The notes under the pieces are model-generated. The model was not told the origin of the DNA. It saw only the letters and a list, made by a program, of their open reading frames with translations, and made no database searches. From Eledone cirrhosa (taxonomy: Eukaryota), in assembly GCA_964016885.1 (NCBI GenBank), contig OZ024746.1, positions 4,402,001 through 4,466,000 of the forward strand: a stretch of DNA of 64,000 nt, read 5' to 3'. Positions 9,515 through 60,176 of the stretch are shown piece by piece; the stretch's first letter is position 1; every line of letters starts with the position of its first letter. The position numbers were made by a program, and so were the translations under genes.

Positions 9515-9637
9515 TAATGTTTTTGTTTTTATATCGGCAATATTGGCAACATGGCTATCCCCAAATATAAAACTATCGGTTCCAACACACGATTTCACAT
9601 GAGGAATCTTGCAGAACACGTACATAAACGTTTAATA

Positions 9638-10580: not shown

Positions 10581-10827
10581 ATTTATATATGTTCAGGGTG
10601 TCCCAAAACAACATTCTAATAAAAGTGTGTGTACATTTTGTGGGGATTTATATATATATATATGCAGATGTTATATTTAATTTGTTGGGATTCAACAAGC
10701 TTAAACATTTTTATAACTGATATAAACCACTCAACAGTTTAGTGGAGTAAATACTATCCAGGAAGCTCCAACCGTTAAGGTTGTCTTTTTTCCTGGTATG
10801 TCAATATTTATTTATAAAACAAATCTG

Positions 10828-10893
10828 TATTTTATCTGATGAAAGCGCACCATAATTTGCCTTGGTTGCCCTTGAAATATATATAATAAAATA
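10828..10893 (+). ncRNA. type I HHR (module C, 10665-10922)
   Basis: Stem I TATTTTAT/ATAAAATA, CTGATGA, stem II, GAA, palindromic stem III ATATATAT, H17=A. Confidence 0.8.
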
Positions 10894-11255
10894 AATATGG
10901 TTTTATAAATATAGTTTCCATTACAGCGTATTGCAAAATACACTGTATATACATTCATATATATATCGCTATTTCAGAGCACCAATTCTAATTTTCAATT
11001 TCTGCCTGACCGGCAACCGCTCTGTATAATCAGTTCCTGATTATTACTAGAATTCTATAAGAATCAAACATTCATGATTTTCAGTAAACAGGTGGAGTAC
11101 TTGGCTTTGACAAGTACCAATCAGTACGAAACAGAGCTCTGTCAGCTTTATCTCCCCTGTTTGCTGAAAATTTAATGTAAGTGAGGCTGTCACTACTCTA
11201 AAACAAATGCTTTTAATTAAGCATACAGTGTATTGCAAAATACACTATATATACA

Positions 11256-16938: not shown

Positions 16939-17575
16939 TTGTTTATTACATGGACAGTAAAGAACTGAGTGAGGGAAAGAAGGAAAGAAAGAACAATTTG
17001 AAGAAGGAAAAGAAGGATGAGGAGAAACATCGTTTCCTATTTAGGGGGAAAAAAATACAAAAGTTGCTCAACAGTACATAAAAATTTGCGTCGAGATTTC
17101 AGTAATATACATACAAGGTTAAAGGAATTATCAATGATGTAATTAAAAATAGAATTATAGGCTGACTAGCTCCGGCAACTGAGTTAAATTAAGTACTGTA
17201 GATGTGTTTATGGGCCTCTATATAATATAAACAACTCGTAGCATTAACGGCGCCTCTTCATTAATAGTAAATTTTATCAATGAAGCTAAATCGTTGACTC
17301 GATTAAATTTCCTTTATTGATATGTATAAGGTTGTATAAGGGCGGCTTGTGTGTCAGTTAGAAGAAATGTATTCATTCATACGTGGCAATAGATGCACTG
17401 CTGAATATAACGAAGAAAAGTAGCTACCATTTAAAATGGAGATTAAAACACGTGTTATCTTAATGAGAGTAAGTTAAGGTTTAGATAGAAGAGAGTAACG
17501 AATAAACTAGAAGTAAAGGAAAGACAGCATAAAATTATTTAACAAGGTACATAAATATATACATCTTTATATCTA

Positions 17576-17615
<40 letters not shown>

Positions 17616-17635
17616 TATCTATCTGTCTGTCTATC

Positions 17636-19043
17636 CACCTCATGCGATACATCATAGAGAGGGCGGGGTGTAAACCTGGTTTCGGTGAGGCTCTGATCAA
17701 TTTAGATCAGTCTAAGGCGTTCGATAGGGTCGACCATCGATACTTGGAAGCGGTTCTCAAGGAGGCTGGTTTCGGACCCGTCTTCAGAGGCTGGATCACT
17801 GCCATGCACACCAACATCTGCTCGACAGTCAAGGTGAACGGCTACCTGTCGGAGCCGTTCGCAATCACGCGTTCCATCCGACAGGGATGCCCTCTCTCCT
17901 TCATTCTGTACGTATTGACTCTGGCGCCACTACTGCGGAAGCTGGAGCTTTTGCAGGGCATCCCGTTGGAACCGGGACTGCGGAAAGCGGCGTCGGCTTA
18001 TGCCAACGACGTGACAGTAATGGTGTCGAAAGCCTCGGAAATCGGGGCGATCGGCAACTTACTGCAGGAATACGAAAGGCTCACAGGAGCAAAACTCAAC
18101 CCGGACAAGTCTGTCGGTTTGCAACTCGGAACTTTGAGAGGCAAACCGATGCCGTCCGACAGCGTCGTCGGACGCTGGGCGGAAGGACCGGTGAAATTGC
18201 TCGGGGTCTGGTTCGGTTCGGACCTCCAGGTGGAGAAAAACAGGAACGAGGTCACGGCCAAGGTATTTGCGCTCACCTATGGACAACTTCCAAAGGTCCC
18301 TGGCCTGGCAGTGCTACCGAGGAGCTCTATCAGTCCGAGACAAGATCTACAGGAACGGACGCCCCGGTAGGGATCCTTCCAAGAGGACGTGTCCAAGATG
18401 CGAGCAGGACATTGAAACCGTCCTGCACGCAATTGAACACTGCCCGGGCGTAACCGACCTGTGGAACTACGCAGAACAACTGCTGTCGCGTATGGGACGA
18501 ATCCAGTTGAATGCCGAGTCCATAGTAAGGATCAAACCGCCAAGTTCTTTCAAAAACGAAAGAGAGGCGGTTTTCCTCTGTATAGTGGCTATGGTGAAAG
18601 AGGTTATATGGTGGACAAGGTTGAGAGGACTGAGGACAGATGCCTTTCTCTCCGGACAACAACTCATTCCCTTCTTTAGGTACCACTTTAGAAGGAGAAT
18701 CAGAGTGGCGAGAGAGGCACTGCACTCCAGTAAATATACTGAAGGTGGGTGAATGTAGCAAAAATGGCTCGAGTGATTGGGCCTTCTCTGTATATAAACC
18801 TGTAGGTTGAAGAAGAGAGCAAACGGAAGAATGGAGCACTTGCACAACATGCTCCTGAAGTTGAGGGTTGTTCTATCGACGGGATATTAAACAACACATT
18901 TGTAACGCCTCCTCCCTATTGGAGATTTCGATTGTTAAATTTGTTTGTTTTAATAATATTTTTACATGACTGTATGTAAAATCCCCGGCATGTGTCTTTG
19001 TATTGTTTCCTTTTCTTGTGCGCCCTTGTGGTAAATAAAGAAA
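17636..19043 (+). mobile_element. 5'-truncated, internally deleted Tx1/L1-clade LINE
   Basis: LDQSKAFDRVDH, RQGCPLS, AYAND (YADD mutated), then CPRC-x8-H-x4-C knuckle in another frame; 3' UTR ends AATAAAGAAA; TATC-like flanks. Confidence 0.9.
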
Positions 19044-21736: not shown

Positions 21737-22281
<545 letters not shown>

Positions 22282-22299
22282 CTATATCCACTGTTTTTT

Positions 22300-22829
22300 A
22301 TAGAACCTTACTTCCCCTTTCCAATATATAAGAACCACAAAGTTACTAAGACAAAACATATATATTTGCTAACATAGGTATGCATCTGTATACATATGTT
22401 GGTAGATATACTAATTCTTTATAATTATCTCCAAATTATTTGTTGAGCAAAACTTGCCGAAATTACTACTATGATTAATAGTAGTGGCTAGGCCCTGTCT
22501 TAATAGCACCCCCACTCCTCACTGATTAACCTCAGTGTCACGTGATTGATTCTTTTGAATTTGCCACTTGACCAAGTAGGCAGTGAATTTTTCAATGTCT
22601 TAGAATCTAGTCCCCGCTCGCTTTTTTCCATTCACTGAATTATTTTTATATAAGTTCCCAGTGTCCTCGCATTGCCTGGAAGCTTAGCTGAGAATAGACT
22701 CCCTGATGACGTAAGGCTTCTCTATGGATACGCTCCGTAACCATATTTATCCCCTTACAGAAACTAATTAGTTGGAGTGAAATTTTAGTAAGTAAGTTAA
22801 TTTTCATAACTTTCTTATTTACGCCTTTC

Positions 22830-22832
<3 letters not shown>
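22300..22832 (+). mobile_element. diverged monomer of the 558-bp HHR element
   Basis: Colinear with 59380-59915 (e.g. GTGTCACGTGATTGATTCTTT, CAGTGTCCnCGCATTGCCTG); same 3' end before (TA)n. Confidence 0.85.
22698..22778 (+). ncRNA. variant type I HHR (C10.1-A11.1)
   Basis: ACTCC-CTGATGA-C-GTAAGG...CCTTAC-A-GAA-ACTAATTAGT-T-GGAGT. Confidence 0.8.
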
Positions 22833-22889
<57 letters not shown>

Positions 22890-23394: not shown

Positions 23395-24177
<783 letters not shown>

Positions 24178-24222
24178 TAAACAAATAATGAACAAACAAT
24201 TCCTTATATTAAACAAAAAAAG

Positions 24223-24377
24223 TTCACTATTTAACGATCGTTTCTAGGGTATATATGTGCTATAATTGGTATGCATATTTAACAGATCTATGTACAAAAT
24301 TATACAAAATTATACAAATTATCAAGATTAAATATACATACCTAACTCATATATACGCCGTCTTCAGAAATAATGAA
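24223..24377 (-). ncRNA. variant type I HHR in PLE 3' pLTR, very long stem II
   Basis: Stem I TTCATTATTT/AAATAGTGAA; CTGAAGA; C-GG-C-GTATATATG...CATATATAC-C-CT-A; GAA-ACGATCGT-T. Confidence 0.8.
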
Positions 24378-56344: not shown

Positions 56345-57739
56345 CATTGCTCTCACTGATCATTTCTACGCACCAGAGCCATACGGACCCCCGAAAACCA
56401 CGATGAACTAAAGAAAATGATTGCACATGCGGTGGGGGCCAGCATAAAATTAACCCTTAAGGAACATATGTTCAAATTTAATGGAAAAACATATGCCCAA
56501 GAGGAGAGAGCAGCCATTGGTGTTAGCATTGCAGGCGACATAGCTAACTTATTCATGGTATGGTGGGACAGTAGACTTAAACTTAAACTTAAAGAACAAT
56601 TAGAAGACCCCTTAACCCTGATAATGTACTCCCGCTACGTTGATGATATAAACATCGTAGTTAAAACACCCCACTAGAGAACAGTCAGGAATTAGAGAAA
56701 AACACAATGGAAAGCATCCAGCAAATAGCTAACTCCATCCACCAGAGTATTAGAGTTACTATAGACTACCCAAGCAAACACCCCAACCATCGATTACCTG
56801 TACTAGACACAGAGCTCTGGTTAGATACCATTAGTAACAAAAAAAAATCCTCCATTCCCATTATGCCAAACCCATGACTTCCAAATATCGGACCATACCA
56901 AAATCAACATACTGATTGCGGATTTGGTACGGGTGATGAGAAACGTGTCCCGCATGTGCAACCCCGAAGAACTAGAGAGACACATACAACACTTCATCCA
57001 CCGTATGCAGTTCTCTGGTTACAATCAAAGAGATAAAATCAGAGTGTATAGAGGAGCCAGAACCAAATGGGAAAAAATGGTAAATAATGACACAAATGGG
57101 ACCTGCTCCTTGTATAGGAGCAAATTTTGGAATAGAATAGAAAGAACTAGGAATAAGGCTAATAGAATAAACTCATGGTATGATAGCAATAAATACCAGA
57201 GTGTAATGTTCATCGATACAACCCCTAAAGGTGAATTAGCTTACAAATTTAGAAGGGCCCTAGATAAACATAAACTCAATATTAAGATAGTAGAAAGACC
57301 AGGTACCTCCATAAAAACACTTATTAGCAGGACATACCCTTTTCACCGACCCCCCTGTATAGATAAGAAATGTATAACCTGTAAATTAAGCGCCCATATT
57401 AACTGTAAAACTAGAAATGTAGTATATAGCATAAGATGTACTGAAGGACAATGTAGAGATAAAAATATAGTGTACATTGGTGAGACAGCTCGTAGTGTAG
57501 GGGAACGGATAAATGAACACTAGCGAGACCTTCAAGATAGTAAAGAATCATCTGTACTCTACCAACATGCTAAAATAGAACATAAGGGTAAATTAGAGAA
57601 CATAGAAATAAAAATAGAATCTACACACAGAAAAGACGCAATGTTTAGATAAATCACAGAGGCAATAAACATAAAAGAATTACAACCAAAATTAAATAGA
57701 AAACATGAGTGGAACAGCAACATCACAACTTACAATTAA
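56345..57739 (+). pseudogene. 5'-truncated degenerate PLE RT + GIY-YIG ORF (different clade, Nematis/Neptune-like)
   Basis: AAIGVSIAGDIANLFM, RYVDD, LPVLD, Cys-rich linker, NVVY...VYIGETARSVGERINEH, SVLYQH, LNRK; several stops and frameshifts. Confidence 0.88.
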
Positions 57740-57940
57740 GGACAAAATGAAAACACACACGCACATAGAACAAACAACCAACTATTAACATGTAAATAAA
57801 CAAATAAATAAACGAATATAAACACACACAGACACCCGGATGTGGCGCATGCGCGGACTGAGCACACAATACACACACAGAAACAAGATGGCGTAGGACA
57901 GAACAAAGGAGAGGCACAAAAACAAAGAAAAGTCTCCCCA

Positions 57941-57983
57941 GTCACTGAATAGGTCACAGAATGTGTGACGAAAGAACTTTGAC
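57941..57983 (+). ncRNA. degenerate minimal HHR in pLTR of second PLE
   Basis: GTCA-CTGAATA-G-GTCAC-AGAATGT-GTGAC-GAA-AGAACT-T-TGAC. Confidence 0.55.
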
Positions 57984-58348
57984 AATATATAAACAACCAT
58001 CTGGTTGTGGAACCAACCAACCGGAAATTTATAAATTCCTAAATTTATAAATTTATTATAATAAATTGAAGTGAAAGCAACTGGTGCGTGTGTTTCTTAT
58101 TGGCAACATGACCCTCCCAAAGCATAACAATATCGGTTTCAACACACGTTTTCAGATAAAGAATCTTGCTAAACAAATTCAGAAACGAAATATATATATA
58201 TATTTATATATATATATATATAAACAAAGTTAATTTTACAACAGATTAGAAGCACTCAACGGTTTTTATCCGGAGTATCATTTAACCTCAATGAACTTAT
58301 TACATGAATTCACATGAAGATATGTCACTATCTTTACACCAATTATTA

Positions 58349-58409
58349 TATTTTATCTGACGAAATCGTACTTAAATATTAGTACCCTTGAAATACGTAT
58401 AATAAAATA
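58349..58409 (+). ncRNA. type I HHR (module C relative, 58225-58450)
   Basis: TATTTTAT-CTGACGA-AATCGTACT...AGTACCCTT-GAA-ATACGTAT-A-ATAAAATA. Confidence 0.8.
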
Positions 58410-58450
58410 AATATGGTTTTATAAAGATATTTTCCATTTATTAATATTAT

Positions 58451-58515
<65 letters not shown>

Positions 58516-58705
58516 GATAATTTAATATATCAACCAACATAAGCGCACAGATGCACGCCCATGCTAGCAAATACACAGGTTATGTCATAGTACCTAGGTG
58601 GTTCAATGCAGGAGAATGCAGAACAATAATATAAAAGACGTAAAATAAGAAAATATTTTTTTTTTAAATTTTAAAAAAATTTTTTACTTACTTACTTAAA
58701 TTTTC

Positions 58706-58787
58706 ACTCCAACTAATTAGTTTCTGCAATGGGATAAAGACAGTTACGTAATCCAACTGTCGAGAATTCATTGCGTCATCAGGGAGT
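58706..58787 (-). ncRNA. variant type I HHR (left arm)
   Basis: Reverse complement of 59757-59838. Confidence 0.8.
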
Positions 58788-59756
58788 CTATTCTCAGTTA
58801 AGTCTCCAGGCAATGCGCGGACACTGGCGGCTCATATAAAAATAATAATAATTCGGTAGATCGAACAGCTGGCGAGGACTGGATTCTATGTACCGAAATT
58901 CTCACTGCTACAGGTCAAATGGCCGATTCTAAAGAATCAATCACGTGACACAGAGGCTAGTTAGAAGGAATGGGATGGTAAGATGACTGACGCCTACTAA
59001 CACCCCAAAAAATTTTTTTAGAAGTGGTTTTGGCAAGTTTGCTCGACAAATCAGTGATTTAGAGATAAATATAGATAATTTAATATATCAACCAACATAA
59101 GCGCACAGATGCACGCCCATGCTAGCAAATACACAGGTTATGTCATAGTACCTAGGTGGTTCAATGCAGGAGAATGCAGAACAATAATATAAAAGACGTA
59201 AAATAAGAAAATATTTTTTTTTTAAATTCTTTAAAAATTTTTTACTTACTTACTTAAATTTAAGTAAGTAAGTAAAAAATTTAAGAAAATTTAAGTAAGT
59301 AAAAAATTTTTTAAGAATTTTTTTAAAAAATATTTTCTTATTTTACGTCTTTTATATTATTGTTCTGCATTCTCCTGCATTGAACCACCTAGGTACTATG
59401 ACATAACCTGTGTATTTGCTAGCATGGGCGTGCATCTGTGCGCTTATGTTGGTTGATATATTAAATTATCTATATTTATCTCCAAATCACTGATTTGTCG
59501 AGCAAACTTGCCAAAACCACTTCTAAAAAAATTTTCTGGGGTGTTAGTAGGCGTCAGTCATCTTACCATCCCATTCCTTCTAACTAGCCTCTGTGTCACG
59601 TGATTGATTCTTTAGAATCGGCCATTTGACCTGAAGCAGTGAGAATTTCGGTACATAGAATCCAGTCCTCGCCAGCTGTTCGATCTACCGAATTATTATT
59701 ATTTTTATATGAGCCGCCAGTGTCCGCGCATTGCCTGAAGACTTAACTGAGAATAG

Positions 59757-59838
59757 ACTCCCTGATGACGCAATGAATTCTCGACAGTTGGATTACGTAA
59801 CTGTCTTTATCCCATTGCAGAAACTAATTAGTTGGAGT
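59757..59838 (+). ncRNA. variant type I HHR (right arm)
   Basis: ACTCC-CTGATGA-C-GCAATG-[GACAGTT/AACTGTC hairpin]-CATTGC-A-GAA-ACTAATTAGT-T-GGAGT. Confidence 0.8.
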
Positions 59839-60176
59839 GAAAATTTAAGTAAGTAAGTAAAAAATTTTTTTTTAATTTTTTTTTTAAATATTTTCTTATT
59901 TTACGTCTTTTATATATATATATATATCGAAATGTGAGACTATTGCGTTAACAAGCGGAAAGAAATTTCTCAGTTCAATGAGTTTTTACTCGTAAATGTT
60001 CAAAAAGCTTCTTGAATTGTTACTCTCAGCTTCAGTTTCAGATATCAGCGTTCCAGTGATACCAGTCATTACTTCATTGGAAGCATGTAACCAACGATGA
60101 CAATGTTCACCAAATGTGATATATATACATATTGTGAGAGAGAGAGAGAAATAGATGACATCTTGTATATACATTG

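Follow-up and report, generated by a model that had tools for sequence, protein, structure and literature searches.

A head-to-head pair of hammerhead repeats between (TA)n runs in Eledone cirrhosa, with a join close to the predicted ribozyme cut

The locus described here combines an element and an insertion shape that both belong to known kinds. The element resembles the non-LTR retrozymes of animals (PMC7229834; Li, Clavereau & Pollet 2026, bioRxiv 10.64898/2026.07.22.740005), which are processed to monomers in vivo (PMC7229834) and whose mobilisation is still presented as a proposal in the available text of these sources (PMC7229834; Li et al. 2026). Of nine Xenopus retrozyme dimers, one cleaved in vitro and eight did not.

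The insertion shape resembles the one seen in Penelope-like elements (PLEs). Insertions of PLEs carry an inverted 5' copy and a tail and are biased towards microsatellites (PMC8557442; for the tail, also PMC11167929), and palindromes are common at their head-to-head joins, where they have been read as the product of self-priming (PMC3846280). The PLE enzyme of the anole acts on both target strands, cutting and extending each, and reverse transcription starts at two internal sites downstream of the hammerhead cut, which define the tail (PMC11167929). In the available part of the same work, hammerhead mutants were without effect on insertion in vitro, so that cleavage was dispensable; the substrate in vitro was mainly unprocessed RNA, and the cut coincided with neither the start nor the end of any RNA-seq read (PMC11167929). 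The role of the hammerhead in PLEs has been described as unclear (PMC8557442). In Schistosoma, hammerhead pairs on opposite strands lie 100-700 bp apart, and a dimeric hammerhead with a palindromic stem III has been modelled (PMC4209133, 2014). Outside these groups, an HDV-like ribozyme releases the RNA 5' end of R2 and L1Tc (PMC6765202). In their available text, none of three PLE descriptions (PMC3846280, PMC8557442, PMC11167929) links the join to the hammerhead cut, and a literature search, with subscription papers mostly outside it, found no mapping of PLE or retrozyme inversion joins to that cut.

The 558-nt unit and its head-to-head arrangement

The window (64,000 nt of contig OZ024746.1, positions 4,402,001 to 4,466,000) contains an inverted repeat whose arms are 98% complementary over 587 nt and whose centre lies at 59221-59320. 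The repeat unit is 558 nt long, with 36.8% GC (below the 45% limit used for retrozymes), and is non-coding, with stops throughout all six frames; no ORF was found in it, and the RT and GIY-YIG domains of an autonomous PLE are accordingly absent from the unit. Positions within the unit are given below with a plus sign, +1 being the first base after the predicted cut. The features are as follows.

58453 to 58510, no strand: (TA)n microsatellite at the left boundary, the likely target
58511 to 59261, minus strand: left arm, 751 nt or 1.35 units, from +8 past one cut site to +200 past the next, with one intact hammerhead
58511 to 58628, minus strand: one-sided extension ("tail") of the left arm only, 118 nt, +83 to +200, with a TATAT end at the (TA)n
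58706 to 58787, minus strand: type I hammerhead motif of the left arm, from a descriptor scan, with the predicted cut between 58711 and 58710
59235 to 59282, no strand: perfect palindrome of 48 nt whose midpoint, the inversion centre, falls in AAATTT (59256-59261, +8 to +13 of the unit)
59262 to 59284, plus strand: fold-back copy of the first bases of the unit, then AA (59283-59284), then the restart of the right arm
59285 to 59915, plus strand: right arm, 631 nt or 1.13 units, +6 to +82, with one intact hammerhead
59757 to 59838, plus strand: type I hammerhead motif of the right arm, from a descriptor scan, with the predicted cut at 59833/59834
59822 to 59833, plus strand: self-complementary stem III region, 12 nt, self-duplex at -10.8 kcal/mol
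59916 to 59927, no strand: short (TA)n run at the right boundary, the likely target
22310 to 22835, plus strand: old single copy of the 558-nt family, 74% identical, with approximate boundaries, the same hammerhead core and a compensatory stem II

The outer ends of both arms (+200 and +82) consist of TATAT adjoining (TA)n, and in a check for a target-site duplication the flanks had in common just a 13-nt TA run, itself within the (TA)n. The right-arm sequence is nested inside that of the left arm, and where the left arm repeats itself, the two stretches are identical except in an A/T tract. This tract, from +7 to +80, is 91% A+T compared with 60% in the remainder of the unit, and 4 of the 13 short palindromes of the unit (at least 6 nt) fall in it. 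Its four copies (58640-58710, 59195-59261, 59285-59345 and 59834-59905) all differ, and the differences are linked to the strand, with A runs in the left-arm copies standing as T runs in the right-arm copies; either template switching or consensus error could account for them.

In several respects the unit is like a non-LTR retrozyme: it is non-coding and low in GC, carries one type I hammerhead, continues head to tail past the ribozyme, and is dispersed and common to several organisms. Its length falls within the range of 51-972 bp given by Li et al. (bioRxiv 10.64898/2026.07.22.740005), although it is larger than the units of coral, mussel and axolotl (about 220-390 nt). In contrast to the tandem arrangement of retrozymes, the arms hold 1.35 and 1.13 units head to head, with one hammerhead per arm, whereas Li et al. 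define active elements by at least two consecutive tandem units with a complete hammerhead. The available retrozyme descriptions are also without inverted, tailed insertions, and the present insertion is both.

These features are found in PLE insertions. The head-to-head inverted 5' copy, the palindrome at the join, the one-sided 3' tail and the microsatellite target are all present, and the 3' ends lie downstream of the hammerhead cut, as in PLEs. The palindrome (48 nt) and the tail (118 nt) are longer than in the PLEs described in the available sources (18-38 bp and 30-40 bp, respectively), and, unlike a PLE, the unit has no ORF; compared for pLTR homology, it matched neither of the two PLE-like elements in the window. 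The two hammerheads lie about 980 bp apart, compared with 100-700 bp in the Schistosoma pairs.

The hammerhead motif and its conservation

In the plus-strand motif, stem I (ACTCC, 59757-59761) is followed by CTGATGA (59762-59768), GAAA (59820-59823) and the triplet GTT (59831-59833), which places +1 at G59834. On the left arm, CTGATGA lies at 58782 on the minus strand and the mirror +1 at 58710, also on the minus strand. Together, the parts comprise a 5-bp stem I, CUGAUGA, a 6-bp stem II flanked by C and A with a 37-nt loop II, GAAA and GUU; thus the CUGANGA and GAAA boxes, an NUH triplet and stems I and II that characterise type I hammerheads are all found. An extra A (59819) separates C11.1 from G12, and the old copy at 22310-22835 has it as well. 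GUU is a weak hammerhead triplet. The palindromic stem III is predicted to permit a dimeric (double) hammerhead.

The type I form, 5-bp stem I, long stem II and palindromic stem III are shared with the PLE-type hammerheads of PMC4209133, and so are an extra base between positions 9 and 10.1 and the pair G10.1-C11.1. The motif differs from them, as far as the available part of that paper describes them, in the extra A between C11.1 and GAAA, the GUU triplet, the 37-nt loop II and the lack of an Rfam match. An Rfam search of 59500-59900 at E up to 10 returned a weak snoRNA match and no hammerhead, and a further Rfam search gave no hammerhead among the matches listed (150 of 345).

The old copy allowed a comparison of conservation along the unit. 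The core together with stems I and III is identical at 33 of 33 positions, whereas 275 of 375 body positions are (P about 4e-5 in a post hoc comparison of two distinct sequences), and in stem II two of the six pairs are changed on both sides while none is broken. The hammerhead therefore appears, from this pattern, to be kept by selection. Conservation is not unique to the motif, as a 21-nt run around TCACGTGA (59593-59613) is also identical in the young and the old copy, and is as conserved as the hammerhead; this run may be a promoter or a protein-binding site. For the monomer, the fold of lowest energy is not the hammerhead (-21.6 versus -17.9 kcal/mol, a difference of 3.7). These two points count against a functional hammerhead, as do the comparison of only two sequences, the extra A, the weak GUU triplet, the missing Rfam match and the eight Xenopus dimers that failed to cleave.

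The sequence-only reading had taken the junction as indirect evidence of hammerhead activity in vivo. A conserved and covarying hammerhead is in keeping with such activity, but the junction is the weaker evidence for it; conservation would be the better indication that the ribozyme works.

Relatives in the window and in sequencing runs

The 3' end of the old copy coincides with the end of the right arm (+82), and the recurrence of this end in a lone copy of 74% identity suggests that +82 is a real start site. Its 5' end lies at about +65 to +100, near the far edge of the A/T tract and not at the cut. Directly upstream of the old copy, 21851-21935 and 22205-22288 form an inverted repeat of 82% identity.

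A sister hammerhead family is present in the window at 31.4, 47.7, 10.7, 34.5 and 58.2 kb. Two of its loci (31360-31791 and 47588-48024) are whole asymmetric palindromes, about 86-90% alike, with identical outer ends, centres that agree to within some 20 nt and a long-arm/short-arm design; the arms of one locus share changes that are absent from the other. In both, about 68 nt separate the centre from the CUGAUGA downstream of it. Five sister arms at three loci (31.4, 47.7 and 34.5 kb) start or join 123-140 nt upstream of the cut, the values at 31.6 kb including some spacer, and the palindrome at 47.8 kb has a short A/T palindrome as its centre, a long way from the cut of that copy. A related subfamily occupies 10670-10960, 34500-34772 (minus strand) and 58222-58460. 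The copy at 10.7 kb consists of an inverted tail fragment followed by a forward copy, with arms that stop at unrelated places; the copy at 58.2 kb, similar to it by eye, adjoins the (TA)n left of the target, and the copy at 34.5 kb is single. A diverged head-to-head hammerhead-like pair was also seen at 52990-53230, with CTGATGA at 53084 (minus strand) and 53110 (plus strand), of which the plus copy alone passed the descriptor.

Two PLE-like elements are found in the window. The first, at 27621-30113 on the minus strand, is a candidate autonomous PLE with an intact 830-aa ORF that resembles RT/GIY-YIG clusters, and its upstream region recurs inverted at 24169-24342. The second, at 56340-58190 on the plus strand, was read by eye as the broken remnant of a PLE-like RT/GIY-YIG sequence, with (TA)n runs on either side; it has a minimal hammerhead-like motif at 57945, and its last 90 nt recur at 9541-9630. 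A Pfam search of the two proteins at E 0.001 found nothing, the unit matched neither element, and the window yielded no autonomous partner that shares a homologous end. The window also contains a G-rich 42-nt minisatellite of 81 copies with 97% matches (40357-43762) and a fragment of a LINE-type reverse transcriptase (17555-18750; RVT_1, E 5e-15).

The unit family occurs in sequencing runs of several organisms, with a share of at least 0.2 in nine of 24 runs among the matches listed, and in contigs of runs X2, X4 and X6 the hammerhead likewise passes without a break into the A/T tract, and this into the body. Contigs of four of the 24 listed runs, which drop rare variants, were compared over 59225-59905, with 59846-59905 skipped as a repeat; among the matches listed they contained no strand-change joint and no accumulation of molecule ends at one site, and the one joint present was a variant of the A/T tract. 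Depth at 59225-59293 does not count as support for the junction, because contigs of the tail map there. Runs X2, X4 and X6 have loose ends near 59336-59340 and 59300, which are probably A/T-rich sequence matching by chance and were discounted. None of 40 contig variants among the matches listed falls in the hammerhead core, and as only about 3 would be expected there, this avoidance was not used as evidence.

Both arms carry four alleles that are in the minority in run X1 (59371, 59421, 59451 and 59746), with summed-depth shares in that run of 11%, 12%, 0.02% and 19%, respectively. The arms thus appear to come from one source, and one of them may be a copy of the other. The G at 59451 was considered as a mutation private to the locus and rejected, since the old copy at 22310-22835 has G too, which makes it a rare allele. 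In scans for further copies, metagenome contigs gave three matches, none homologous and all judged to be chance, and both viral contigs and prokaryote genomes gave none.

The join and its possible origin

Cleavage after GUU had been proposed in the sequence-only reading, with both copies ending close to it. The coordinates of the predicted cut, 59833/59834, hold, and its 3' product would start GGAGUGAAAAUUUAAGUAAG. The right arm does begin at 59285, with GAAAATTTAAG, which corresponds to +6, so that 5 nt are missing, and the left arm, thought to end near 59258-59261, ends at 59261, which corresponds to +8, with 7 nt missing. The fold-back between the arms is likewise present, inside the perfect palindrome plus AA. 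Sequence upstream of the cut is absent from the join, and the inner ends of the 631- and 751-nt arms lie within 2 nt of each other. Slip features are seen at the join (a 26-nt duplication and the loss of one TAAG unit), and a restart at +6 is distinguished from a slip duplication by G6-A7 alone. Both copies therefore do stop near the cut as far as the distances of 5 and 7 nt are concerned, but a single junction represents one event and not two independent stops.

How often chance would place the join no more than 10 nt 3' of the cut depends on what is allowed: 1.8% if joins are uniform over 558 nt, 7.7% if a palindrome of at least 6 nt is required (1 of 13), and 25% if the A+T tract is favoured (1 of its 4 palindromes). 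As the join lies in a palindrome-rich tract of 91% A+T, the chance may be as high as the last value. A cut-defined end is plausible in view of the join at +6/+8 and of inner ends that agree within 2 nt, unlike those of the sister copy at 10.7 kb. It is unproven in view of the single event, the A+T tract, the 5' end of the old copy and the sister joins upstream of the cut. The shared minority alleles, the anole PLE results, the non-cleaving Xenopus dimers, the non-hammerhead fold of the monomer, the conserved 21-nt run outside the motif and the lack of an autonomous partner in the window also weigh against it. In the earlier interpretation, the reverse transcriptase ran to the 5' end of a self-cleaved RNA. 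The join lies where such an end would be, although the cut as its cause is not established; from this one example, the possibility that the join marks the end of a self-cut RNA is evenly balanced.

An insertion of PLE type, taken by itself, is very probably what the locus represents. The fuller reading, in which a PLE enzyme inserted the hammerhead repeat pair between (TA)n runs in one event and the join is the 5' end of a hammerhead-cut RNA, could equally be true or false. Starting from the observed anatomy and the conserved hammerhead, we infer the following enzyme, RNA form and order of steps. A longer-than-unit transcript would be cut at the upstream hammerhead, with the next hammerhead left uncut, and a PLE RT-endonuclease acting in trans would nick both strands of the (TA)n target. 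Reverse transcription would be primed at two internal sites, +200 and +82, giving an inverted pair with a one-sided tail, and synthesis would pass the uncut hammerhead and run nearly to the 5' end of the RNA. The ends would then be joined through the self-complementary AAATTT, with 5-7 nt lost and a short fold-back duplicated. A self-cleaving ribozyme that sets the 5' end of a reverse-transcribed RNA, as proposed here, would recall R2 and L1Tc, which differ in the kind of ribozyme and the class of element; in R2 and L1Tc the ribozyme is located 3' of its cut, and their autonomy is intact.

The alternative that survives best retains the PLE-type insertion and an uncut tandem transcript as template, and lets the A/T tract set the join, with RT or second-strand synthesis stalling and folding back at short palindromes, so that the proximity to the cut is a coincidence. 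The composition of the tract, its four short palindromes and a centre placed exactly in AAATTT agree with this explanation, as do the slip features, the differences among all four copies of the tract, the 5' end of the old copy near its far edge and the sister palindrome at 47.8 kb, which is centred on an A/T palindrome distant from its cut. The self-priming proposed for PLE joins (PMC3846280) and the preference for unprocessed RNA in vitro (PMC11167929) also fit. However, the palindrome used was the first that the tract offers past the cut, and those at +31, +52 and +56, among them the strongest (12 nt, at +31), were not used; both arms also reach to 5-7 nt from +1. Overall, we consider this explanation rather unlikely, though one to be taken seriously.

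The template might instead have been a circular monomer, copied more than once round, as PMC7229834 and PMC4209133 propose in their model; formation of the circle would still require the hammerhead. Arms longer than a unit, a perfectly rejoined GUU/GGAG junction and the identity of the repeated part of the left arm outside the A/T tract would all follow. A circle has no end, however, and its stop point would not record the cut, so that a stop at +6/+8 is not predicted; this makes a circular template improbable.

It is also quite improbable that the join is secondary and arose at the DNA level, either by a later inverted duplication of a 1.35-unit insertion or by a central deletion or rearrangement of a longer palindrome. 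Long perfect palindromes are unstable, and the nesting of the right arm in the left-arm sequence, the shared minority alleles and the small duplication at the centre are compatible with such a rearrangement. Against it, the right arm ends at the site used by an independent old copy, no flanking DNA is duplicated, and a long arm paired with a short arm, with the same outer ends, is also seen at the two sister loci (31.4 and 47.7 kb).

A fold-back of a long read, which the sequence-only reading had named as a possible cause of the junction, or an assembly artefact is highly improbable, as a fold-back read would mirror to its end, whereas the locus has 4 differences in 531 positions between the arms (all substitutions), arms of 751 and 631 nt and unmirrored flanks, and the same design occurs at two further loci in the window. 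One 86-nt contig of run X1, which may be the source sample, matches 59260-59345 exactly over the restart region; it has 25 letters left of 59285, below the bar of 31 letters for bridging, and misses the palindrome centre. An artefact is thus unlikely, yet the centre is without independent confirmation: it holds the perfect palindrome, no contig among the matches listed bridges it, and the strand-symmetric differences in the A/T tract could be consensus errors.

Returning to the PLE-type insertion of a hammerhead-cut RNA, its extension to the whole family is tentative: inversion centres may pile up just after the hammerhead site, and the template may be a linear half-cut dimer rather than a circle. 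The locus is a retrozyme-type unit carrying the full signature of a PLE insertion and, as one locus, is suggestive only. If inner junctions cluster at the cut throughout the family, the form of the RNA that is reverse-transcribed would become testable from assemblies alone. If the pile-up after the cut is true, assemblies would offer a direct readout of hammerhead activity in vivo and direct evidence that the PLE machinery moves retrozymes.
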